Source: a virus (Duplodnaviria; Heunggongvirae; Uroviricota; Caudoviricetes). From it: a stretch of 21,881 bases of DNA. The notes beneath the pieces are model-generated. The model did not search any database, was not told where the DNA came from, and saw only the letters and a program-made list of their open reading frames with translations. Position numbers and translations under genes: made by a program. Shown here one piece after another: positions 122 to 21,881 of the stretch (positions within the stretch are counted from its first letter, which is position 1; each line of letters starts with the position of its first letter). The DNA is taken from the IMG/VR virus record IMGVR_UViG_2671180357_000006, positions 1 through 21,881 of that record; one strand, written 5' to 3'.

Positions 122-535
122 TTAGTCTGCATAGCTTTTCAGAAAATCTTCTTCAGAAAGAGCTAGGTCATTTTTTATTAAAAATTCCAATAAATTATAC
201 TGAGCTTCTATTCGGTGTTGGCGGAGCGCGCCCATTTTCTGATTAAGAAGTATGTTTTTTATCAACTCTCTAGTGACTACATGCCGAGGGTGCTTTTTTA
301 AGTCAGCGATCCATTTTGGCATTTTATCATTAATTTCCTGCTGTCTTTTTTTTGGCAGCGAATCTATCCCGCCTCCAGCGCCTGGGAACATTACTCTTTT
401 AGAGTGTTCGAGTTCCTCAAATACGTTAGTTAATTTTGTTAATGCATTACCAAGTGCGATTTGAGAGAAAATACCAAAGACCATGTTTTCTTCCTCATGT
501 GGAAACTGTTCGGTCAAGGAGAGCTGATTAATCAT
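122..535 (-). CDS. hypothetical protein (137 aa), no recognisable motif
   Basis: ORF from the six-frame track in an AT-rich segment; ordinary amino-acid composition; the overlapping plus-strand ORF 252..464 looks like antisense noise. Function unknown. Confidence 0.45.
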   Translation of the reverse strand: MINQLSLTEQFPHEEENMVFGIFSQIALGNALTKLTNVFEELEHSKRVMFPGAGGGIDSLPKKRQQEINDKMPKWIADLKKHPRHVVTRELIKNILLNQKMGALRQHRIEAQYNLLEFLIKNDLALSEEDFLKSYAD

Positions 536-744
536 ATGCTAATTTTAGATTGCTATTGATATCAAAGAGTATTCTTAGCAAGGTAAGCGAGCATAATTGA
601 GAGCTTGTTAAATCATATTATTCAATTATAGCTTATTAAGAACATAGGCTGAATGTACCGACCTCGCTACTTAACGCTGTGCAGGCTTATCAACGTCCGT
701 TTCTGGCACATAGCAGTCCTAGAGACTGAATCGCCACGGATAAT

Positions 745-942
745 CTAGACACTTCCGAGCCGTTGATAATACTGGTTTTCATATTCTGTCGGTGACATCT
801 GTTCGCTAGAACCATGCCGACGCTTACTGTTATAAAACATTTCGATGTAATCAAAAATATCACTGCGGGCTTCTTCCCGCGTTCCGTAGATCTTTTTCTT
901 TATCCGTTCGCGTTTCAACCAGCAAACAGTAGATGAAAACTA
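745..942 (-). pseudogene. IS3-family transposase (OrfB / rve integrase core) C-terminal fragment, about 65 codons, no upstream remainder
   Basis: Hand translation of the minus strand gives FSSTVCWLKRERIKKKIYGTREEARSDIFDYIEMFYNSKRRHGSSEQMSPTEYENQYYQRLGSV bounded by stops at 940-942 and 745-747. The YIE-FYN-KRRH-SP-YE pattern matches the conserved C-terminal tail of IS3-family transposases. Not in the ORF track because it is short. Confidence 0.5.
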
Positions 943-1050
943 CAGATATACCTGTAGCCACTGCCATCAGATAGAGTTTGATCATGTGTTTTCCTATGTG
1001 GCTATTGTGTGTAGATGATAAGTAGGTGCTTATATATTTTCAAGGTATAA

Positions 1051-1070
1051 AGGCGTCCATTCGGACGCCT
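1051..1070 (-). terminator. hairpin immediately 3' of the RecA-like gene; weak candidate terminator
   Basis: Perfect 8-bp stem AGGCGTCC / GGACGCCT with a 4-nt loop, 5 bp after the stop codon. On the minus strand it is followed only by TTTATACC, a weak U-tract. Confidence 0.35.
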
Positions 1071-1075
1071 GAAAA

Positions 1076-3415
1076 TTAATCTTCTAATTCATCTGTCGGT
1101 GATGTCTTCTCGCGCCTGTCATCTATTGCCTGTAACGCAGCAATGATTTCAGCTAATGGCTTCTCCCGGTACATCTCGACGATCTGTGATTTGGTGTATT
1201 TCTTCTCGCCAATTTCCACACGCCCGCTGGCGCTCTTGGGCAGGTATCCTTCCTCCAGCATGTATTCGACCAGAGACTCGACGACGTCCAGCCCGCGAGT
1301 CGGGTCGAAGTAGAATTTCCATGAGCATTTGCCAAACGGAGGCGCGACTTTGTTTTTAATGCACTCGGCGCCAACGTCCTGTCCGATCTTCTCTTTGCCA
1401 TCCTTCATGACGGATGCACCCAGACGGATGCGCACCGACGCGTAGAACTTCGGAGAGTCGCCACCCGGAGACGTAGTCGGATCGCCAAACATCACACCAA
1501 TTTTGGTACGCACCTGGTTCAAGAAGATGATGCACGCGTTGTACTTACGCGCCCAAAGCGCCAGAGTAGGGAAGTTCGCACTTGTCGCGCGCGCCAGCGC
1601 CGTGTTGTCGTTCATGTTCAGCTGATCTTTGTCCTTCGCAGTGCCTTCTGCCATCTTGTCGAACTTCTCAGCCTTCGAGTTCGGAACCATCGACGCCAGA
1701 GAGTCGGCTACGATGCAGATAGGGGCTGTTTCCGGAATAAGCTCTTCGTCGCGCACCAGCTTGAGGATTGTGCCGATCAGCTCTACGGAGTCTTCGAAGG
1801 TATCCGGCTGTTTGTAGACCCACTGACCGTCGTCTTCGTCGGCGTTCAGTCCGTTCGCTACCGCCAGACCAACGTCGAAACTGTTTTCGTGGTCAAGGAA
1901 TACGGCCAGACCATCCTGTTTTTGTGCTGACACCATCGCAGCCGTCGCGAGGAATGTGTTGTGGCTGATAATCCCGTTAGACCAGAAAGAGTGTGTTTCC
2001 GGCATCGCTACGTCGAACGTTGGTGCTTCACCTTCCTCAATAGCCACGACTTCGTCGTAGAACAAGTTAGAGTCAATTACCGCTGCCAGTTGTGCAAACA
2101 GATGCTCGTTAAAACGATTCTTTCTGCCAATGAAGGAGACATAGATTTCTCGCAGTTTGTCTATTCCGACACGATCGCCGCGGCCAATAACGTGATCTAC
2201 CAGAACGTAGTCTTTACGAGAGGTCTTGGTGAGTGACTCGTAGAGTGATTTCACTAAGCCGCTGATGTGCGGAACGTAGCCTAAATAAGTGCGGTCAAAA
2301 CTAATGTCCCGTTTGGTTGCCACTGCTAAACGAGCCGGAGACTCGAACCCAATCGTTGACAGGAAAAGGTCGTAGTTAGAGCCACTGAATGACAGCCGGT
2401 AATATATGTTTTTATAACCTGCGACGTGTTTTTCAGAGATAGTTGACGTAATCCCCAGATTCAGGAGCATGAGGCGAATTTGCTGTAGCAGCAGCCCACT
2501 CGCGCTCACAACCTCAATGCAGCGACCATCATTGACGTGGCATTCCAGCTCAAAGTAGCCGCGAAGGAATGCAATTTGAGCCTCGCTATTGGCGCGACGC
2601 ACACTCAACGGAACCTGCTTGCCAGCAGCTTTCTCATACTCCAGACCATATTCTTTAAAAAGCAGCGAACGCACCTCTTTGCTAAACAGCACATGGTCTT
2701 CCGAGCCGTTATGTTTTCTCGTAACTGGCATCTTGTCTGATACCAGCGAAATGAGGCGGTAGTACTCATCCTTGATGAATGGATCTGTGTTAGAAACATG
2801 CACAGAATTTTCAGAGGCCACGTATCCGTCAGCAATTAAATAGCCCATCAGTTTTGCGATATTGGCATCCAAGTGCTGATCGCCGAATTGATGTGTGCCA
2901 ACCATTGAAGGAATAGTGTCGCCTACACTGATTTTTTCAGCATACCGCCAGACGATATTGCCTAAGTCGTCAACCACACGAATTGGGTGACGGAACGTAG
3001 CCTCGATGTAACCCCCTGATGCCAGCTTAATGCGCTTGAATTTGCGACGGTTGTTCCATGTCAGGTGTGAGGTCTTCTCTATCACGCCATTTTCATTGAT
3101 GAGTCCAACGTTATGCTCTACATCGCGAGTAGTGCATGTTGCTTTGTGCCCCTCAATCTCAAACAGTTCTTTCACTGTTACCATTCCACGCTCCGTCAGC
3201 AGCATGGTGTCTGCGGTAACACATTTCCCCGCGCTTGGTGGCCCGAAGACTTCAACGATACGCCCACATGGAAAACCACCGTCGTAACGTCCGGAAATGG
3301 CTTTGTTCAGTGGAGGGAAACCGGAGTCAATCCAGTGGGAGACCTTCTGAATCTCGTCATTGCTGCCGATTTTCTTTTTCAGCGCCAGTGCCAGTGCGGA
3401 TTTGCCTTTTGCCAT
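1076..3415 (-). CDS. RecA-family recombinase interrupted by an intein (779-aa precursor; exteins total 357 aa)
   Basis: N-extein ends GRIVEVFGPPSAGK and the C-extein starts TFLATAAMV, which rejoin to a Walker A motif GPPSAGKT. The C-extein carries FLNQVRTKIGVMFGDPTTSPGGDSPKFYASVRIRLG, closely matching the bacterial RecA core [36 protein letters not shown]. AGGAG RBS 7 nt upstream of the ATG. Confidence 0.9.
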   Translation of the reverse strand: MAKGKSALALALKKKIGSNDEIQKVSHWIDSGFPPLNKAISGRYDGGFPCGRIVEVFGPPSAGKCVTADTMLLTERGMVTVKELFEIEGHKATCTTRDVEHNVGLINENGVIEKTSHLTWNNRRKFKRIKLASGGYIEATFRHPIRVVDDLGNIVWRYAEKISVGDTIPSMVGTHQFGDQHLDANIAKLMGYLIADGYVASENSVHVSNTDPFIKDEYYRLISLVSDKMPVTRKHNGSEDHVLFSKEVRSLLFKEYGLEYEKAAGKQVPLSVRRANSEAQIAFLRGYFELECHVNDGRCIEVVSASGLLLQQIRLMLLNLGITSTISEKHVAGYKNIYYRLSFSGSNYDLFLSTIGFESPARLAVATKRDISFDRTYLGYVPHISGLVKSLYESLTKTSRKDYVLVDHVIGRGDRVGIDKLREIYVSFIGRKNRFNEHLFAQLAAVIDSNLFYDEVVAIEEGEAPTFDVAMPETHSFWSNGIISHNTFLATAAMVSAQKQDGLAVFLDHENSFDVGLAVANGLNADEDDGQWVYKQPDTFEDSVELIGTILKLVRDEELIPETAPICIVADSLASMVPNSKAEKFDKMAEGTAKDKDQLNMNDNTALARATSANFPTLALWARKYNACIIFLNQVRTKIGVMFGDPTTSPGGDSPKFYASVRIRLGASVMKDGKEKIGQDVGAECIKNKVAPPFGKCSWKFYFDPTRGLDVVESLVEYMLEEGYLPKSASGRVEIGEKKYTKSQIVEMYREKPLAEIIAALQAIDDRREKTSPTDELED
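1958..3223 (-). other. intein (422 aa) with LAGLIDADG homing-endonuclease domain, inserted in the RecA P-loop between K and T of GPPSAGK/T
   Basis: Starts with Cys (CVTADTMLL) and ends SHN, followed by Thr as the +1 extein residue. Two LAGLIDADG-type motifs inside (LMGYLIADGYV and FLRGYFELECHV). Removing it restores a canonical RecA P-loop. Confidence 0.8.
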
Positions 3416-9900: not shown

Positions 9901-10461
9901 GTAGAATGGGGTAGGGTGCGGATAAACCACGCTGTAGAAGTTATCGCGTCCTCCAGCTGTCACCAGCGTCCCGATAATCTTTGCGAAGTCCCGGCGCTGG
10001 AATACACTGCCAATGTCGGACGTCAGCAGGATGATGTTGCCTTTGGCATATGCGGCCGCCAGCTGGTCAAGTGCCAGACGCGGAACAAAGTAGAATTGCT
10101 CGCGCTTGTTGGCTAAGGTCATCAGTTCGCACACGTCGCGATAACCTTGCTCATTCTTTATCAGTGCCGTGAAGCAGTAGCTTCGATCACGCACCAATGA
10201 TTCCATACATCCTCCTGACTCTTTCGCCAGGCGGGCGCGATGCTCGTATGTCGGATCGTCGACCACATTCAGCTTAACACCACAAATAACCGCCATGTCG
10301 TCGCCAGCGGCACGCTGCAGGGGGATCACACTGGCAATGTTCATGCTGTCAGCGGAAATGACAGCGGTGTAGCCAGCGTCTCTCGCGATTTTCACCGCGT
10401 TTTCTGCTTTTAGAGCTGACTCTCCCAGGGAGAAGTCAGTTCTGACCATCAGAGCCTTCAT
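6955..10461 (-). CDS. DNA polymerase III alpha-type (DnaE family, C-family polymerase), 1168 aa, with a non-canonical C-terminal domain
   Basis: Strong DnaE motifs: [10 protein letters not shown]...[27 protein letters not shown]...[21 protein letters not shown] (palm with catalytic aspartates), FRPGP, [42 protein letters not shown]. The N-terminal PHP-like region lacks the His pairs. Confidence 0.92.
   Translation of the reverse strand: [1168 protein letters not shown]
6958..7404 (-). other. C-terminal ~150-aa domain of the DnaE-like protein resembling a family-4 uracil-DNA glycosylase fold with degenerate catalytic motifs
   Basis: [18 protein letters not shown]...LYVTGVCKK...[17 protein letters not shown]...[14 protein letters not shown] aligns by eye with family-4 UDG (LVLVGEGPGEEEDKTGRPF...VYITNIVKCRPP...IVPLGAVAA...FPMFHPAYLLRNP); GEGPG is replaced by DNANG and HP by NP. 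It sits where bacterial DnaE has its OB-fold and tau-binding region. Confidence 0.55.
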
Positions 10462-14259: not shown

Positions 14260-14292
14260 CTGTACGAACAGGCATCTAATCTGTTCGTACAG
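14260..14292. promoter_or_regulatory. perfect 12-bp inverted repeat (candidate operator) in the promoter region of the CobT/CobS/DnaE gene block
   Basis: CTGTACGAACAG-N9-CTGTTCGTACAG, 54-86 bp upstream of the CobT-like start, overlapping a plausible -35/-10 on the minus strand. Confidence 0.4.
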
Positions 14293-14531: not shown

Positions 14532-14787
14532 TTCATATCATCCAACTGAACACGTAAATACCTTGCAATACTACTACCTATTGTATCAATACGGAATACT
14601 TATGTATCAAATACAACTTAGTTTTAAGTTCTTAAATGAGTTATTTTTTAGATAGTTGTCTATTAGTGAAGCCTTTTGCGGTCAGTAAACCTATGTAAAA
14701 AAATAGATAAGTCTTTACAACACTAACCTTTGATGTAATATCAGTAAGCACTTACCAAATAAAATCAAAACACGCAGGTTGATAATT

Positions 14788-15177
14788 ATGGCTACCAACG
14801 AAACAAAAGAAGCTAAAGTAAGTCGCTACGCTGCTTACATTGACGCTTTAATCGCGATTTCTCCGAAAAGCCAGGCGACCATCGCGAAAGAAGCAGGCTA
14901 TAAAAACCCTAACAATCTTTCACTTATCAAGAGCGGCAAAATCCCGCTTCCGATCGACAAGGTCAGAGCGTTGGCTAAAGCATTGGATGCCGATTCGGTC
15001 CGATTGATGCTAATGGTGCTGGAAGAGCGTCATCCAGAGCTGTTAGCGTTTTTTCGCGACGAAGGCACAGCCCCTCTGACTAAAGATGAAAAACTAGTTC
15101 TGGAAGCCTTCCGTCGACGTTTCGGTGACCAACGTGGTGCGTCGGAGCGGGTTGTTGAGGCAATCAAGTCGCTATGA
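14788..15177 (+). CDS. putative HTH transcriptional regulator (130 aa from ATG; the track's TTG start at 14779 is less likely)
   Basis: SQATIAKEAGYKNPNNLSLIKSGKIPLPIDKVRALAKAL looks like a helix-turn-helix; AGG 9 nt upstream of the ATG; transcribed divergently from the 70-aa gene across a 256-bp AT-rich region; stop overlaps the integrase stop. Confidence 0.6.
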   Translation: MATNETKEAKVSRYAAYIDALIAISPKSQATIAKEAGYKNPNNLSLIKSGKIPLPIDKVRALAKALDADSVRLMLMVLEERHPELLAFFRDEGTAPLTKDEKLVLEAFRRRFGDQRGASERVVEAIKSL

Positions 15178-16275
15178 GAAATTTACACGGATTAGCTCAG
15201 TAGCGAGTCGATCTCCCTTGAACTTATGATCTATCTCCTCTAAATCCTGTTTCTCTACGATTGATGCGATGTACGCCGAAAAACTGTTTAAGGCGTCTCG
15301 CATCTCGTCTATATAATCGTGTCGATCGTATACTCGATCTATCCCCTCAAGACTGTGGTTCATAATTTTGCGGGATACCTCCTGACTTATGCCTAACGCG
15401 GGGAAGTAACTACGCGCAGTACGACGCAAATCTCGGGGAGTAAATGGCTCAAGCTCCATCAACTCTGGACGTTCTAAAATCCTTCTCAACGCCTGTGATA
15501 TGGCCACCTTAGACATTGGCACATCCTCACCCTGTTTCTTGTTTGAAGGAACAAGCCACTGGCTGCCTTTTCCGTATTTGATCAGCTCCTCAACACATTT
15601 GCGCATTAGCGGGCTTAATGGTAACGAGTGCTGGCGAGCCGATTTATTCCTCGTTCCTTGATTCCATAAATTATATTCGAGGTTGAATTCTGATCTTTTA
15701 GCTCGGAGCACTTCATCTGGTCGTCTGGCCGCTACAAGACATAATCTGGCCGCCCACTTTGTACCCTCACATACGTTGAAGTAGTCCCATACATTCCAAA
15801 AGACCCAGACCTCTGCGTCGGTCAGTTTGCGCTCGCGAGGCGTGGGCTTCGCGCCACCGGCTACTCTGTTAAGCGACATATCGTTCAATGGGGATGTATC
15901 AATTAAGCCCTGAAATGCACACCAACTGAGAAACTGCTTCATCAGCGAGAACACACGTCTGCCCTGGACGATCTTGCCCTCAAGTATTAATGGGTTCACC
16001 AGCTGGTTGACTAAAACCCTACTAATGTCACTTACTTTTACTTCACAGATATGCGGCATTACATGTATCAAAATACAATGAACAGCTATTTCAGGTCGAC
16101 GTCTCGTTATCAGCAAAGATAAGCGAGTGAATAACATGAATGCGGAAGAAAACGACATGTCACCGTCGAAATTGGTGGTCGACACTGCTGACAAGCCGGA
16201 AGCGCGTTCGAGATACTCGATGGCTTCTCTAGAGGTGTTTTCTGCTGCGCGTGCTTTATCAAAAGTGTTTTTCAT
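15172..16275 (-). CDS. int: tyrosine recombinase / integrase, P4-type catalytic domain; N-terminal arm-binding domain not recognisable
   Basis: Catalytic-domain motifs LTDAEVWVFWN, RLCLVAARRPDEVLRAKRSEFNL, TPRDLRRTARSY, IMNHSLEGIDRVYDRHDY (R..H-x-x-R..Y). The first ~70 residues do not resemble the usual P4-type N-terminus. Confidence 0.85.
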   Translation of the reverse strand: MKNTFDKARAAENTSREAIEYLERASGLSAVSTTNFDGDMSFSSAFMLFTRLSLLITRRRPEIAVHCILIHVMPHICEVKVSDISRVLVNQLVNPLILEGKIVQGRRVFSLMKQFLSWCAFQGLIDTSPLNDMSLNRVAGGAKPTPRERKLTDAEVWVFWNVWDYFNVCEGTKWAARLCLVAARRPDEVLRAKRSEFNLEYNLWNQGTRNKSARQHSLPLSPLMRKCVEELIKYGKGSQWLVPSNKKQGEDVPMSKVAISQALRRILERPELMELEPFTPRDLRRTARSYFPALGISQEVSRKIMNHSLEGIDRVYDRHDYIDEMRDALNSFSAYIASIVEKQDLEEIDHKFKGDRLATELIRVNFS

Positions 16276-16303: not shown

Positions 16304-16323
16304 TACTGTATTTATAAACAGTA
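16304..16323. promoter_or_regulatory. LexA (SOS) box-like palindrome over the putative integrase promoter
   Basis: TACTGTATTTATAAACAGTA matches the gammaproteobacterial consensus TACTGTATATATATACAGTA at 18 of 20 positions (CTGT-N8-ACAG). It lies 29 bp upstream of the integrase ATG, abutting a -35 TTGATC, 16-bp spacer, -10 TAATAT on the minus strand. Confidence 0.55.
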
Positions 16324-16372
16324 TATTAGGCCTAAGTTTTGTATGATCAACAGTAAAATAGACTGTTTTTGA

Positions 16373-16407
16373 AAATGATTCCATACCTTACAAGTATGGA
16401 ATCATTT
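16373..16407. repeat. perfect 14-bp inverted repeat / hairpin in the integrase-cassette intergenic region
   Basis: AAATGATTCCATAC-N7-GTATGGAATCATTT. No clean U-tract on either strand, so terminator, recombinase-binding site and att core are all possible. Confidence 0.4.
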
Positions 16408-16574: not shown

Positions 16575-16991
16575 TCAGCTAGAATGGAAACCTTCTGCGA
16601 CTTCAGCGAAGTAGCTGAGCAACCTAGTATCTCTTGCTGGCATACGATCGTGAGCTGGAGTGACTAGCCCCATCAGCAAAAAACGCCCGCTATCCCACAT
16701 GTGCTCGGTATAAACGAGATAGTGGTTTGAGGTTCGGTTGTAGTTCTCTTGCCTTGCGTTCCAGGTAAGCTGGAAATGCAAATTGACGTGAATATGCTGG
16801 ACATTAGCATCAACGGCGAACGGCGGGAAGTCAAATGGTGCATCTCGTCCAAGAAGATTAGATGGTGCGCCAGTTGATTTGTAAGTAATGAACTCGGATT
16901 TGAGCTGACTTTCTAGGTCAGGGTAAACGACAAAAGTGGGCTGAAAAAAATCATCCCACGTAACTTGACTGTATTCAGCCGTTAATGCCAT
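16575..16991 (-). CDS. hypothetical protein (138 aa), second gene of a two-gene cassette
   Basis: ORF with ordinary composition; start overlaps the stop of the upstream 182-aa gene by 10 bp (translational coupling). No recognisable motif. Confidence 0.5.
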   Translation of the reverse strand: MALTAEYSQVTWDDFFQPTFVVYPDLESQLKSEFITYKSTGAPSNLLGRDAPFDFPPFAVDANVQHIHVNLHFQLTWNARQENYNRTSNHYLVYTEHMWDSGRFLLMGLVTPAHDRMPARDTRLLSYFAEVAEGFHSS

Positions 16992-17530
16992 TTAGCCGCA
17001 GCCTTGTTGCCAGTCTCTAATAGATGGTTCATGGCTAAAAGGTTGACACCAGAGTCACGCACTACAGAAGTGCGTGTAATCTGATCAATCAGATTGAGAT
17101 AGTTTTTGGTCGCAATACTGACCATTTTAATAGCCTTAAAAAACGCAAACTCAACAGTGTTTTTTTCGTAAGACATGATGACGTCTTTTTCAGGTAACAT
17201 CAAAACAAAAGATTCTGCGATACCGGCTACATGAATAGTTTGATTCTTAATTTCTTCCGCTACTTTGATAGCAGCAAAGAAGTCAGTGTCAGCATAATGA
17301 GCAAGTTCAGCGCGGCTTGAACGCAGTTCTTTAGCCAATTCATTGAGAGCAGCTGTAAGATCACTGATGTCGGTTTTGTTGACTCTAGCGCCCATCTCAT
17401 AAACCCGTTCGACAATCGTAGGCTGACACGCAACCGCTTTGGGTTGCGGCTGGATACTGGCAAGAACCAGTGCCACTGCTGCCTGCAAATGCTGGATTTT
17501 AAATTTCACGATAGACTCCATAATCGTCAT
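16982..17530 (-). CDS. hypothetical protein (182 aa), first gene of a two-gene cassette
   Basis: ORF downstream of the tRNA terminator, co-oriented with the 138-aa gene. No recognisable motif. Confidence 0.5.
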   Translation of the reverse strand: MTIMESIVKFKIQHLQAAVALVLASIQPQPKAVACQPTIVERVYEMGARVNKTDISDLTAALNELAKELRSSRAELAHYADTDFFAAIKVAEEIKNQTIHVAGIAESFVLMLPEKDVIMSYEKNTVEFAFFKAIKMVSIATKNYLNLIDQITRTSVVRDSGVNLLAMNHLLETGNKAAAKWH

Positions 17531-17784: not shown

Positions 17785-17859
17785 TGGCGATGGTGGGTGG
17801 ACTCGAACCACCGACCAGTTGATTAACAGTCAACCGCTCTACCACTGAGCTACACCATC
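17785..17859 (-). tRNA. tRNA-Asn (anticodon GTT)
   Basis: Minus-strand sequence GATGGTG-TA-GCTC-AGTGGTA-GAGC-G-GTTGA-CTGTTAA-TCAAC-TGGTC-GGTGG-TTCGAGT-CCACC-CACCATC-G-CCA folds as a canonical cloverleaf with perfect 7-bp acceptor, 5-bp anticodon and 5-bp T stems, a TTCGAGT T-loop and encoded CCA. Confidence 0.88.
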
Positions 17860-17968: not shown

Positions 17969-18006
17969 AGATCTCGAATCTTTCTCGGTGGTTGATTGCC
18001 GTTAGA

Positions 18007-18044
18007 GGGGGAACCGCAGAATTCGGAAAAAATCGTACGCTAAG
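18007..18044 (+). repeat. 38-bp terminal inverted repeat of the Tn1721-like transposon (outer end at 18007)
   Basis: GGGGGAACCGCAGAATTCGGAAAAAATCGTACGCTAAG: Tn21-family IR signature including the EcoRI site known from Tn1721 ends. Flanking 5 bp outside are TTAGA. Confidence 0.85.
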
Positions 18045-18144
18045 CTAACGGTGTTCTCGTGACAGCTCTTTGACTAGGCTTTCTAAGGCCATTCTGATAG
18101 CCCTGACTTCCTGAAAAGCCATGGCTAAAATTTGTGCGGCTAAA

Positions 18145-18176
18145 AGGGATAACCGATGGTAAAGTAAGTTATCCCT
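18145..18176 (-). terminator. hairpin 3' of mcp; weak candidate terminator
   Basis: 9-bp stem AGGGATAAC / GTTATCCCT with a 14-nt loop, about 20 bp after the mcp stop; only TTTA follows on the minus strand. Confidence 0.35.
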
Positions 18177-18195
18177 GTCGAGATACTGAAAAGCG

Positions 18196-19773
18196 TTATC
18201 CTCGTTTTTCCCAAAACTGTTTTGCCAGTTCGCTCAGAGCGCTAGTTAACTGAGCGACAGATTTCGCACTTTGCAAATTATTCTGCCCGGTCTGTACATT
18301 GGTATCAGCAGCATCGCGTATATTGATAATACTGCGGTTTATGTCTTCACTTACTGCTCCCTGCTGCTCGACCGCAGTCGCTATTTGCGCGTTCATGTCG
18401 GTAATTTCGTTAACGCGTTGGCCAATTCCATCAAGAGCTGTAGCTGCTTCCTCTGCGTGAGCTACACTCGTGTGCGCTTGCCGACTACTTTGCTCCATGA
18501 CTGTAACAGCGGATTGCGCTCGCTCTTGTAGAGCGCTGATCATGCTTTGAATATCCGTTGTCGATTGCTGTGTGCGAGCAGCAAGACTGCGAACCTCATC
18601 GGCGACAACAGCAAAACCACGCCCCTGCTCACCAGCACGCGCGGCCTCAATTGCTGCGTTGAGTGCCAACAAATTCGTTTGCTCGGCGATCCCTCGTATA
18701 ACGTCAAGAACTTTTGATATCTCGTTACTTTGACCTTCAAGCTCATGAATAACCTGAGTGGCTTGCCTAATTTCACCTTCAAGGGCAGTGATTGACTGGC
18801 TTGTGTGGGCTACCAGACGCTGGCCAGATGCCGTCTCAGTGTCTGCTCTTCCGGCCGCATCTGCAGCATGCTGTGCATTGCTCGCAACCTCTTGAATGCT
18901 TGCCACCATTTGGTTTACTGCCGTTGCTATTTGATCTGTCTCTGCCTGCTGCTCAACTGTAAGTACATTGCTTGACTCAATATCCTTTAGTAGGCCTCGG
19001 GTGTGTTCGCTAAGCCGATTTGATGCATCACCTATGCGACCTACTATGGCGCCTGTTTCAGCTTGCATCATTCGTAAAGCAAACTCTATTTGGCCAAACT
19101 CATCGGTGCGCCCAGTGTAGAGGGATTGACTTAATGGGTTATTGGAAATATTCCTGGCTCTTTCAACCAGTCTTCCAAGAGGAGAGAGAATAGCCAAAAC
19201 ACTAACAGAGCTTAAGCTTCCTGACATTAAAGTGGCTAACAATAAGCTGCTTATTGATGTATCAGTAAGCATGCCGGCAGCCATTGCGCTTGATATAATA
19301 CTACCCCATATGAGCAAGAGTATTTTCACGGAAAAGCTAGCAGCCAATTTCGGCCTCGCGGCCTTCCCGCTTCTCAATTGAGCATATAATTTTTCCGCAG
19401 CCAAAACCTGCTCAGGTTCAGGCTTGGTCCTTACAGACTGGTATTCAACAATCGAACCATTCTTAGCTATTGGCGTTACATAAGCACTTACCCAATAGTG
19501 GTCGCCATTTTTACAGCGATTTTTTACTAGCCCCATCCATGAGCGGCCAGATTTTAATGTACTCCACATATGCTCAAATGCAGCAGGCGGCATATCTGGG
19601 TGTCTTACGATGTTGTGAGGCTGGCCTAATAGTTCTTCCTCAGTGAAACCACTGATTTTAATGAAGTCAGGATTAACGTATGTGATATGGCTTTGAGGGG
19701 AGGTAGTCGAAAGAATATTGGCATCTTTTGGGAGTTCTAAGTTTCGACCCGTCACTGGTAAATTCTGGCGCAT
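18196..19773 (-). CDS. mcp: methyl-accepting chemotaxis protein with N-terminal PAS domain (Aer-like); transposon passenger gene (525 aa)
   Basis: N-terminus [75 protein letters not shown] parallels the E. coli Aer PAS region; the MCP signalling domain has [32 protein letters not shown]; hydrophobic segment in the middle; GAGG RBS upstream. Confidence 0.9.
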
Positions 19774-19924
19774 AAGAACCTCAAGGGTTGGCTGTTTTAT
19801 TTTATTGTTTTCGGCATTAAGCCCAATTTCTTGAGCGTTACGATAAAGCTAGCATGGAAACGATAGGTGCAAGCAAGTTAAGGGTTGCATCGCGCATGTC
19901 AATCTAGGCTATACCCTAACTTGA

Positions 19925-20075
19925 TGTCAGGCAGGGCCGCGCCGCTTCGTCAGAATAGAGTCTGCTTTCCCATTTTTTGACACATGCCCGCGAAGGTTAT
20001 AGATTTCAGCCTGACAGAAATGGGCTTTGAGGCACAACGGAACAGAAAGTGCACTTAAGCCGCCTTCAACCAAGG
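19925..20075. promoter_or_regulatory. res (resolution) site and tnpR promoter region of the transposon
   Basis: Clustered imperfect TGTCA/TGACA-type half-site pairs (TGTCAGGCAGG...CGTCAG, CGTCAGAATAGAGTCTG...TTGACA, TGACACATGCCC...CAGCCTGACA) between mcp and tnpR, as expected for Tn21-family res subsites; followed by an AAGGAG RBS before the tnpR GTG. Confidence 0.5.
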
Positions 20076-20082
20076 AGACATC

Positions 20083-20643
20083 GTGCAGGGGCACCGCATC
20101 GGCTACGTCCGGGTCAGCAGCTTTGACCAGAACCCGGAACGCCAGCTGGAACAAACCCAGGTGAGCAAGGTGTTCACCGACAAGGCATCGGGCAAGGACA
20201 CCCAGCGCCCCCAGCTCGAAGCGCTGCTGAGCTTCGTCCGCGAAGGCGATACAGTGGTGGTGCGCAGCATGGATCGGCTGGCCCGCAACCTCGATGACCT
20301 GCGTCGCTTGGTACAGAAGCTGACTCAGCGCGGCGTGCGCATCGAGTTCCTGAAGGAGGGCCTGGTGTTCACTGGCGAGGACTCGCCGATGGCCAACCTG
20401 ATGCTGTCGGTGATGGGGGCCTTCGCTGAGTTCGAGCGCGCCCTGATCCGCGAGCGGCAGCGTGAGGGCATCGCCTTGGCCAAGCAGCGTGGCGCGTACC
20501 GGGGCCGCAAGAAAGCCCTGTCCGATGAGCAGGCTGCTACCCTGCGGCAGCGAGCGACGGCCGGCGAGCCCAAGGCGCAGCTTGCCCGCGAGTTCAACAT
20601 CAGCCGGGAAACCCTCTACCAGTACCTCCGCACGGACGACTGA
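20083..20643 (+). CDS. tnpR: serine resolvase TnpR (Tn21/Tn1721 subgroup), GTG start
   Basis: MQGHRIGYVRVSSFDQNPERQLE... with the catalytic serine region, and C-terminal HTH ISRETLYQYLRTD; near-identical by recollection to Tn1721/Tn501-type resolvase. Confidence 0.95.
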   Translation: MQGHRIGYVRVSSFDQNPERQLEQTQVSKVFTDKASGKDTQRPQLEALLSFVREGDTVVVRSMDRLARNLDDLRRLVQKLTQRGVRIEFLKEGLVFTGEDSPMANLMLSVMGAFAEFERALIRERQREGIALAKQRGAYRGRKKALSDEQAATLRQRATAGEPKAQLAREFNISRETLYQYLRTDD

Positions 20644-20646
20644 CAC

Positions 20647-21881
20647 ATGCCGCGTCGCTTGATCCTCTCGGCCACGGAGCGGGACACCCTGCTTGCGCTG
20701 CCGGAAAGCCAGGATGACCTGATCCGCTACTACACCTTCAACGACTCCGACCTGTCGCTGATCCGCCAGCGACGCGGCGACGCCAACCGCCTCGGCTTCG
20801 CCGTGCAGCTCTGCCTGCTGCGCTACCCCGGTTACGCGCTGGGAACCGACAGCGAGCTGCCCGAGCCGGTCATCCTGTGGGTGGCGAAGCAAGTCCAGGC
20901 CGAGCCGGCGAGCTGGGCAAAGTACGGCGAGCGCGACGTGACCCGTCGCGAGCATGCCCAGGAACTGCGCACCTACCTGCAACTGGCCCCGTTCGGCCTG
21001 TCCGACTTCCGCGCCCTGGTGCGCGAGCTAACCGAGCTGGCCCAGCAGACCGACAAAGGCTTGCTGCTGGCCGGTCAGGCCCTGGAGAGCCTACGGCAGA
21101 AACGACGCATCCTGCCGGCGCTGAGCGTGATTGACCGGGCCTGCTCGGAAGCCATTGCGCGAGCCAATCGGCGGGTCTACCGCGCCCTGGTCGAACCACT
21201 CACGGACTCGCATCGGGCCAAGCTGGACGAGCTGTTGAAGCTCAAGGCCGGCAGCAGCATCACCTGGTTGACCTGGCTGCGCCAGGCACCGCTGAAACCC
21301 AACTCTCGGCACATGCTGGAACACATCGAGCGGCTGAAGACATTTCAGTTGGTGGACTTGCCCGAAGGCCTGGGCCGGCACATCCACCAGAACCGCCTGC
21401 TCAAGCTGGCCCGCGAGGGTGGGCAGATGACGCCCAAAGACCTCGGTAAGTTCGAGCCGCAGCGCCGCTACGCGACCCTGGCCGCCGTGGTGCTGGAGAG
21501 CACCGCGACCGTGATCGATGAGCTGGTCGATCTGCATGACCGCATCCTGGTCAAGCTGTTCAGCGGCGCGAAGCACAAGCATCAGCAGCAGTTCCAGAAG
21601 CAGGGCAAGGCGATCAACGACAAGGTGCGCCTGTACTCCAGGATCGGCCAGGCGCTGCTGGAAGCGAAGGAAAGCGGCAGCGACCCCTATGCCGCCATCG
21701 AGGCGGTGATTCCCTGGGACGAGTTCACCGAGAGCGTCAGCGAGGCCGAGCTGCTGGCCCGGCCGGAAGGCTTCGACCACCTGCACCTGGTCGGCGAGAA
21801 CTTCGCCACCCTGCGCCGTTACACGCCGGCCTTGCTGGAGGTGCTGGAACTGCGCGCCGCGCCGGCCGCGCAAGGCGTGCT
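20647..21881 (+). CDS. tnpA: Tn3-family transposase TnpA, 5' partial (first ~411 codons; runs off the window end)
   Basis: ATG at 20647, 3 nt after the tnpR stop; translation [44 protein letters not shown]...[12 protein letters not shown]...[10 protein letters not shown]... matches the Tn21-family TnpA N-terminus. Absent from the ORF track because no stop is reached. Confidence 0.92.

Follow-up and report, generated by a model that had tools for sequence, protein, structure and literature searches.

Whether a gene annotated as an integrase on a virus-like element serves integration at all is the question raised by one locus in a stretch of 21,881 nucleotides (nt), which covers positions 1 to 21,881 of the IMG/VR record IMGVR_UViG_2671180357_000006 (Caudoviricetes) and is referred to below, at its full length, as the window. 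The locus comprises a tyrosine recombinase gene (int) and a perfect palindrome upstream of it. In a preliminary description of the window the gene had been taken for a P4-type integrase with an atypical N-terminus. According to the analysis given here, the product is predicted to be a two-domain enzyme, core-binding and catalytic, without the arm-binding domain, and the palindrome is probably its own recombination site. Together they may constitute a self-contained Cre/loxP-like module that was derived from a P4/SXT-type integrase by loss of the arm-binding domain and is used, most likely, for plasmid multimer resolution, a reading which we favour with moderate confidence.

A recombinase family without the arm-binding domain

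The gene is located as follows.

15172..16275, minus strand: tyrosine recombinase gene (int), 367 amino acids (aa), start codon ATG at 16275-16273, stop codon at 15172-15174, from the list of open reading frames (ORFs)

The frame exists at exactly these positions, with an ATG start and a length of 367 residues, and its coordinates and N-terminus (MKNTFDKARAAENTSREAIEYLERASGL) agree with the preliminary description, in which no strand had been given. In the Pfam comparison, the catalytic domain PF00589 was found at residues 173-319 (E 6.5e-9; 36.2 bits at a cut-off of 27.1), and the central SAM-like core-binding domain PF22022 was matched at residues 71-133 under its 27-bit cut-off (E 6e-4; 20.4 bits), a precomputed match to the latter being carried by many members of the family. 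The arm-binding domain PF13356 (DUF4102 / Arm-DNA-bind_3) was not found by Pfam in the int product even at E<=1, and the NCBIfam profile PRK09692 was aligned to it only at profile positions 137-394 of 413. For comparison, P4 Int contains PF13356, PF22022 and PF00589 at residues 7-93, 104-198 and 227-388, respectively, with PF13356 scoring 91.8 bits in P4 Int and 64.5 bits in P0115. Thus, the lack of the usual arm-binding domain, suspected at the outset, is borne out by the missing PF13356 match and by the late beginning of the PRK09692 alignment, the domain being present in P4 Int.

The homology to P4-type integrases stands as well, while to call the gene clearly P4-type was an overstatement. 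The alignment with P4 Int gives 22% identity over 214 residues of the core-binding and catalytic parts, with only residues 70-264 of the window product aligned and the N-terminus left out. In profile-profile comparison by hhalign, with a family profile of 56 sequences set against seven arm-bearing relatives, the nearest relatives with PF13356 show 29% identity at an hhalign probability of 100%. A search of 5.8 billion proteins yielded a compact family, mostly of 340-395 aa and with identity down to 43%, in which the same architecture and start are kept across more than 100 clusters and PF13356 occurs in none of the members. The next relatives outside the family (<=33% identity) are mostly of 417-464 aa and nearly all carry PF13356, the exception among the outgroup proteins listed being one cluster of three shorter sequences with PF00589 only. 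The arm-less state looks derived, because the nearest outgroup proteins listed almost all carry the arm-binding domain. The architecture is therefore family-wide and selected rather than peculiar to the copy in the window, and is neither a chance feature nor an artefact of annotation. A pseudogene or a frameshift hiding a normal N-terminus was also considered and rejected, as Met1 is the earliest start codon of the ORF, the 300 nt upstream are AT-rich and intergenic, and the architecture is shared by the whole family. No arm-like ORF was found in these 300 nt, and a normal N-terminal domain was looked for in other starts and frames with a negative result.

Translation start and the N-terminal segment

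Two parts of the product precede the catalytic domain.

16162..16275, minus strand: family-specific N-terminal segment, residues 1-38, unaligned by hhalign, with three short predicted helices
15871..16161, minus strand: core-binding domain, approximately residues 39-135, homologous to the SAM-like central domain of P4/SXT-type integrases

The hhalign alignment starts at residue 39 of the window product, which corresponds to residue 106 of a 417-aa relative, and covers the core-binding domain whole; in the AlphaFold model the helices of this domain lie at residues 42-57, 61-71, 86-98 and 102-122, and its sequence match in the PDB is 2kj5, a phage integrase domain. Thus, the atypical portion, which had been put at about 70 residues, amounts to about 38, residues 39-70 being the first core-binding helices by hhalign and by AlphaFold (42-71). 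The segment itself is predicted to form helices at residues 7-13, 16-26 and 30-34, with a predicted local distance difference test score (pLDDT) of 78-89 for residues 1-30 and of 70 for residues 31-40, and carries the conserved motif AAEN...I.YL. About 105 residues of the nearest relatives, that is, the arm-binding domain and its linker, are absent from the int product, so that the earlier suggestion of a replaced N-terminal domain was essentially right, the short segment standing in their place. The N-terminal 43 residues alone had no homologue outside the family among 1.84 billion representatives, the hits being limited to a fragment of this very protein and two proteins of repetitive sequence.

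The other suggestion, an internal methionine as the start, is contradicted by selection on the segment. The ratio of non-synonymous to synonymous substitution rates (dN/dS) was computed for six orthologues (the window, pMT1, pHCM2, Cyrano, one Klebsiella plasmid and one Citrobacter plasmid) and is approximately 0.03-0.16 for codons 1-39 in most computable pairs and 0.03-0.18 for codons 1-70; between the window and pMT1, codons 1-39 differ by eight synonymous and one non-synonymous changes. The Klebsiella orthologue has Leu in place of Met40. That Met1 is the true start follows from the purifying selection on codons 1-39, from the lack of conservation at Met40, and from the invariant pair of -35 and -10 hexamers just upstream of Met1.

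Catalytic residues and predicted fold

The inferred catalytic set comprises R185, K211, R281, R284, H307 and Y316, of which five, R185, K211, R284 and Y316 among them, are invariant in the 56 family members, and H307 is kept in at least 90%. R281 occupies the position of the usual His, the alignment reading RDLRRT in the family versus HDLRRT in the arm-bearing relatives, and the motifs ARRPDE, DLRRT and YDRHDY are common to both. The AlphaFold model (mean pLDDT 85; predicted template-modelling score, pTM, 0.76) has its best fold matches in the PDB with lambda Int on core DNA, including the arm-less 75-356 construct. The Cre structures follow far below lambda Int (E >=0.016) and also below Tn1549 Int, Xer and IntI, and Cre was not matched in the PDB sequence search. 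At the other end of the protein lies a further family-specific part.

15175..15255, minus strand: C-terminal extension, residues 341-367 (about 27 residues), absent in arm-bearing relatives and conserved within the family

This extension is modelled with low confidence (pLDDT 45-50), and its dN/dS is 0.01-0.18.

The palindromic site

The intergenic region ahead of the gene contains the second component of the locus.

16375..16405, no strand: candidate recombination site ATGATTCCATAC-N7-GTATGGAATCAT, a perfect palindrome of 31 bp, about 100 bp upstream of the int ATG

If the palindrome is taken as 16373-16407, its arms extend to 14 nt. The full palindrome is unique in the window and on the complete related plasmid, and none occurred in shuffled sequences. 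Comparison of the upstream regions of six diverged orthologues shows no change in the arms and variation in the 7 bp between them. When the pattern TGAYTCCAKAC-N7-GTMTGGARTCA was scanned over one GTDB genome per species (185,579 species), 58 loci with one site each were obtained. In 56 of them the site is followed, after 47-218 nt and in the same orientation, by the start of a gene of the family, and the remaining two sites lie at the edge of the fetched stretch. Conversely, in 79 of the 80 IMG/VR loci retrieved by the protein, the site stands 97-101 nt upstream of the ATG. The sites of Pantoea and Rahnella (class 2) have the same architecture with other arms, TGACTCCAGAC-N7-GTCTGGAGTCA, and in Pantoea just about 20 nt separate the site from the ATG. 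The two arm classes (TGATTCCATAC versus TGACTCCAGAC) differ at two positions, symmetrically in both arms; the spacer is always 7 bp long and occurs in both orientations relative to the gene (TTAATAG, CTATTAA). The only asymmetric arm pair seen, TGACTCCATAC ... GTCTGGAGTCA, is that of Biostraticola tofi.

The palindrome is probably the recombinase's own recombination site, as is suggested by the linkage of the two on unrelated backbones, by the symmetric co-variation of the arms, and by the classic tyrosine-recombinase geometry. The variable distance between gene and site (47-218 nt) fits a recombination site better than a positioned operator. Arm-type direct repeats were also sought around int; only short pairs at chance level were found, and no repeat family flanks the core, in contrast to P4, in which arm repeats are annotated. 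Thus, what the preliminary description had seen as a changed recognition of arm-type sites is better described otherwise: there are no such sites to recognise, and the gene has a simple palindrome of its own.

The element and its distribution

The 3.3 kb around int match 254 E. coli records at 281 places, all of them plasmid, and no chromosomal match was found in 5426 complete E. coli genomes. The best match is the 106-kb plasmid pBL12EC-1, which contains repA, ParB-family, terminase, portal, capsid and tail genes in addition to dnaE-, CobT- and CobS-like genes. Full-length orthologues with 80-86% identity are found in the SSU5-like phage-plasmids Cyrano, CMS-2020a and PhiR41_1 and in several Klebsiella phages, and the family is present on 933 PLSDB plasmids (900 of them non-mobilizable), including pMT1 of Y. 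pestis (92% identity) and pHCM2 of S. Typhi (91%). On the megaplasmids of Pantoea and Rahnella (0.3-0.7 Mb), the gene, with 46-48% identity, is solitary among non-phage genes. In Biostraticola tofi, a solitary site and recombinase are found on a 905-kb contig (locus 4108-5312) among oligopeptidase-A-like, YjbD-like and phosphotransferase system (PTS) permease genes. Tyrosine recombinases have been described as persistent genes of the SSU5 supergroup (PMC7969092).

The window is a phage-plasmid of the SSU5/pHCM2/pMT1 type and not a tRNA-linked island. It does contain a tRNA gene.

17785..17859, minus strand: tRNA-Asn, borne by the phage-plasmid, not an attachment site (ARAGORN)

This tRNA is annotated in the plasmid relatives as well, Cyrano having an Asn-Thr-Ser array, and a YafO toxin pair (two genes, 16575-17530) stands between it and int. 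An island integrated at tRNA-Asn is ruled out, because the tRNA is plasmid-borne and does not adjoin int, and all E. coli copies are on plasmids.

The proposed resolution module

In the favoured reading, the recombinase would have lost the arm-binding domain and gained a short helical N-terminal segment in its place. Two monomers would bind the two 11-12-bp arms of the 31-bp site, which the enzyme is predicted to bind and recombine, and strands would be exchanged across the 7-bp spacer with neither arm-type sites nor an excisionase needed, as in Cre/loxP or ResD/rfsF. The module would travel with large low-copy plasmids and phage-plasmids and convert their multimers to monomers for segregation, and the SSU5-like phage-plasmids would additionally have placed int under LexA (SOS) control.

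Multimer resolution is the probable primary role because the enzyme is arm-less, has a single adjacent site and is carried by large low-copy plasmids only, with no excisionase, no cer/dif-like site and no other annotated recombinase at hand. No excisionase was recognised among the annotated neighbours, a dedicated excisionase test not being part of the analysis; the best candidates for a cer/dif-like XerCD site on the complete plasmid have five mismatches, which is the chance level; and no second site-specific recombinase is annotated on that plasmid. It has been noted that phage-plasmids may carry recombinases for dimer resolution (PMC7969092), and the arm-binding domain was found to be the best predictor of integrative mobility (PMC8138268). 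In the literature searched, no experimental study of the recombinase was found. Since tests for the arm-binding domain, for arm sites and for integration at a tRNA gene were all negative, int is best filed not as a member of the P4-type integrases but as a simple tyrosine-recombinase module.

Several points weigh against this reading. The replacement of the second catalytic His (His-II) by Arg extends across the whole family. A bare palindrome gives no topological selectivity, so that plasmid copies would also be fused. Copies that had integrated would lose the palindrome and be invisible to the site scan, and chromosomes were checked directly in E. coli. The Biostraticola tofi copy stands alone between housekeeping-type genes. 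Four conserved half-sites, described in the next section, are not accounted for by simple resolution. Lastly, with a LexA box over its -10 hexamer, int would be expected to be weakly expressed unless the cells are stressed, and this is unusual for a resolvase with a housekeeping role; enzymes of the Cre type, however, are active even at very low levels.

Outlying copies of the arm sequence

In SSU5-like elements, copies of the arm in the form of the 14-mer TGATTCCATACAT(C/T) are found at four conserved places, 0.7-7 kb from the core. The first copy overlaps the start codon of a small ORF for a membrane protein, located downstream of the ligase gene, and the second lies about 200 nt ahead of the tRNA array. 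The other two places are occupied in the window as follows.

10197..10211, plus strand: outlying arm copy ATGATTCCATACATC, an exact 12-mer, antisense in the dnaE-like gene, directed towards the core
15659..15669, plus strand: degenerate arm copy TGATTCCATAA, antisense in int, at the codons LWNQ

The copy in dnaE is kept, in an unchanged position but between varying flanking bases, in pBL12EC-1, Citrobacter, Klebsiella and pHCM2, and that in int is exact (TGATTCCATACAT[C/T]; codons VWNQ) in the orthologues of pMT1, pHCM2, Klebsiella and Citrobacter. The window lacks the two upstream copies, and its homology to most relatives stops at 18006. On pBL12EC-1 (106 kb), all six 11-mer matches with <=1 mismatch fall within 22.8-31.7 kb, and shuffled sequences gave 1.4 matches per plasmid. 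Each copy has the polarity of the nearer arm, so that all four point at the core, two from each side, and the same layout is found in the Klebsiella, pHCM2 and Citrobacter elements. The flanks of the four places are unrelated, the motif being constant while the adjacent bases vary. The copies are absent from the class-2 loci and from Chimaeribacter. As the sequences at the place of a spacer differ from one another and from the core spacer, the arm copies look like binding sites rather than crossover sites. A shufflon-like inversion between them was considered and is unlikely, as their spacers are not alike and two of the copies are situated within essential genes (int, dnaE).

These polar half-sites are the most novel part of the locus and a concrete oddity, and it is conceivable, though we consider it unlikely, that recombinase and palindrome are the hub of a larger, undescribed architecture of SSU5/pHCM2/pMT1 elements, in which an SOS-controlled, arm-less derivative of an integrase is combined with dispersed core-type arm copies that replace the arm-type sites. 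The copies might then be accessory or loading sites that work over a long range, a fork trap similar to Ter, or a guide in the manner of KOPS by which recombination at the resolution site of the plasmid is focused or controlled.

Predicted SOS control and a possible lytic role

The region between site and gene contains two predicted regulatory elements.

16323..16350, minus strand: predicted int promoter, -35 hexamer TTGATC at 16345-16350, 16-nt spacer, -10 hexamer TAATAT at 16323-16328
16304..16323, minus strand: LexA (SOS) box TACTGTTTATAAATACAGTA, 18 of 20 consensus positions, overlapping the -10 hexamer and the start of the int transcript

The promoter was read from the sequence and was not listed by a simple consensus scan; both its hexamers are invariant in the alignment of the six orthologous regions, as are the CTG and CAG triplets of the LexA box. 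The consensus of the latter is TACTG(TA)5CAGTA, and the pattern CTGT-N8-ACAG occurs once in the window. This box is present in 76 of the 80 IMG/VR loci, while of the GTDB loci it is carried by 4/7 of class 1 and 0/49 of class 2, which suggests that the SOS control is an addition specific to the phage-plasmid clade. LexA is predicted to repress int.

Accordingly, an SOS-induced lytic role has to be weighed, in which copies are fused at the core into packaging concatemers, or the incoming terminally redundant DNA is cyclised, and resolution is secondary. The Cre/loxP system can cyclise DNA for P1, and simple sites recombine both ways. Apart from the position of the LexA box over the -10 hexamer, its conservation in the six elements and its confinement to the phage-plasmid clade, such a role would agree with the 39-fold induction of Cyrano by ciprofloxacin (PMC9928086). 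However, the module is kept on the Pantoea and Rahnella megaplasmids with no phage genes nearby and no LexA box, and the ancestral role is therefore not phage-specific; moreover, on pBL12EC-1 the site (25.5 kb) is remote from the genes of the terminase (85.7 kb). A lytic function in the first place appears quite unlikely on this balance.

Possible roles in integration, cargo exchange and regulation

A genuine integrase, by which the element alternates between plasmid and chromosomal states with the palindrome as a minimal attP and some attB as its partner, is suggested by the descent from P4/SXT-type integrases and by the annotation as an integrase everywhere. It is also in line with the solitary copy on the 905-kb contig of Biostraticola tofi, and the integration of pMT1/pFra into the Y. 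pestis chromosome has reportedly been seen. Phage-plasmids may alternate their states by recombinases (PMC7969092). Against this stand the absence of a chromosomal copy in the complete E. coli genomes and the lack of an arm-binding domain, the very domain by which integrative function is best predicted (PMC8138268), together with the lack of arm-type repeats at the core and of a recognised excisionase, and the plasmid-borne tRNA-Asn, which does not adjoin int. In addition, every full palindrome in the 185,579 species genomes is beside the gene itself, and thus there is no separate attB-like copy. We regard integration as the main function as very unlikely.

The same low probability is given to a platform for cargo exchange, in which the core site is the place where cargo is swapped or captured between related plasmids, and by which the differences among elements in the DNA upstream of the site would be accounted for. 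The similarity between diverged elements begins at the left arm or within about 25 nt of it, and the cargo beyond is unrelated: the caf1 capsule operon in pMT1, the YafO pair and the tRNA in the window, and a colicin-immunity-like gene in Klebsiella. The spacer variants in both orientations would also suit such exchange. On the other hand, about 25 nt to the left of the arm are common to 4 of the 6 elements, whose breakpoints are thus not in the spacer; none of the cargoes was found to carry a second full or spacer-matched partner site at its far end; the window and pBL12EC-1 diverge at a breakpoint (18006) that is beside and not within an outlying half-site; and insertion sequence (IS) elements are abundant nearby. 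A site-specific crossover as the origin of the cargo beyond 18006 was rejected on the same ground, the breakpoint lying just outside the neighbouring 31-bp half-site unit and not in its spacer. In pMT1 (locus 147-3241), the F1 capsule operon (caf1M, caf1A, caf1) ends about 630 bp upstream of the core site, and virulence cargo thus abuts the recombination module.

That the palindrome and its outlying copies are mainly operators, bound by a regulatory or architectural protein (the int product or another factor), is highly improbable: half-sites over the start codon of the small ORF and upstream of the tRNA array and the Arg in place of His-II would fit it, but the Tyr nucleophile, both Arg, the Lys and the last His (>=90%) are kept in the 56 diverged members, the geometry of 11-12-bp arms and a 7-bp spacer is canonical for tyrosine recombinases, and the palindrome follows the gene on unrelated backbones at variable distance.

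Neighbouring genes and other features of the window

The gene that converges with int is the following.

14779..15177, plus strand: helix-turn-helix (HTH) regulator gene, 132 aa, convergent with int and overlapping its stop codon by 6 nt (PHROG: transcriptional regulator)

Its synteny with int extends to all SSU5-like elements, while next to the int copies of the Pantoea and Rahnella megaplasmids it is absent. In Cyrano it is annotated as a putative repressor and is reported to be expressed in the lysogen (PMC9928086).

Between the tRNA-Asn and the core site, the minus strand at 16575-17530 carries a YafO-family toxin gene (138 aa) and its overlapping upstream partner (182 aa); some plasmids with otherwise 99% identity lack approximately 440 bp, the YafO toxin gene included, so that their match is split in two and covers 87%. 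A perfect 12-nt inverted repeat, CTGTACGAACAG-N9-CTGTTCGTACAG, lies at 14260-14292 over the start of the CobT-like gene (ORF start 14275) and may be its operator. A RecA-like recombinase of 779 aa, encoded at 1076-3415 (minus strand), is split by an intein that includes a LAGLIDADG homing endonuclease; its counterpart in this position on pHCM2 is uninterrupted and about 358 aa long. The part at 18007-21881 contains, as phage-plasmid cargo, an Aer-like chemoreceptor with PAS, HAMP and methyl-accepting chemotaxis protein (MCP) domains (ORF 18196-19773, minus strand); most E. coli relatives match the window only to 18006, and this MCP gene is found on one listed plasmid only (NZ_CP195970.1).

Comparison with known recombination systems

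The P4/SXT-type integrases (the IntSXT subgroup, with P4 Int, CP4-57 IntA and HPI Int) are the closest detectable relatives, with homologous core-binding and catalytic domains. In contrast to them, the window enzyme has neither PF13356 nor arm-type sites nor an adjacent chromosomal tRNA attB, is plasmid-borne and never chromosomal in E. coli, has Arg for His in the H-x-x-R motif, and possesses the C-terminal extension of some 27 residues.

The Cre/loxP system of P1 and its relatives (Dre/rox, Panto/pox, Nigri/nox) are alike in the two domains, in one short palindrome nearby, in their carriage by plasmids or phage-plasmids, and in the presumed roles in multimer resolution and cyclisation. However, there is no sequence relationship, the site is of 11/12-7-11/12 geometry here and of 13-8-13 in the Cre type, and the window gene has a predicted LexA-controlled promoter and outlying half-sites. 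The logic of a recombinase gene with an intergenic inverted repeat nearby has been validated experimentally for Panto and Nigri (PMC4957104). Panto/pox is not the same system, Panto being a Cre homologue with a 13-8-13 site (PMC4957104).

Among the derivatives of complex integrases, Rci of the shufflon of the IncI plasmid R64 is likewise plasmid-borne and non-integrating and has lost the arm-binding domain (PMC8138268). Rci belongs to the IntP2 and the window enzyme to the IntSXT subgroup, and here there is one full palindrome per replicon. In the sfx sites of Rci, a 7-bp spacer separates a conserved 12-bp arm from an arm that is not conserved, and Rci itself is extended by a further domain at its C-terminus, features which the outlying half-sites and the C-terminal extension resemble. 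Nevertheless, the outlying half-sites with their non-identical spacers inside essential genes make an inversion switch of the shufflon kind unlikely.

At dif and cer, XerCD likewise recombine a resolution site as arm-less tyrosine recombinases. On the E. coli chromosome, the polar elements Ter and KOPS point at dif from both sides, as the four outlying arm copies point at the core; here, however, there is one recombinase instead of two, the site is unrelated, and the polar elements are copies of the site's own arm, two per side. The integron integrase IntI shares a LexA box over the recombinase promoter, by which recombination is predicted to rise on DNA damage, but belongs to an unrelated subgroup with unrelated substrates, and the LexA box of the present family is found only in the phage-plasmid clade.

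Significance

The 31-bp palindrome, as the predicted cognate site of the family, is newly defined. With its compact enzyme and two natural arm specificities, the system is a candidate orthogonal tool for genome engineering. The module would give the SSU5 supergroup a counterpart to Cre/loxP of P1 and would join Rci as the second example of a plasmid-borne simple recombinase that arose by reversion from a complex integrase, and its LexA box would tie plasmid recombination to the SOS response. If it is indeed a maintenance module for multimer resolution, the annotation as a site-specific integrase on more than 900 sequenced plasmids is misleading, among them the Y. pestis virulence plasmid pMT1, pHCM2 and those SSU5-like phage-plasmids that are vehicles of resistance genes in E. 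coli and Klebsiella, and such replicons would be miscalled by the tools in which integrases are used as markers of integration.

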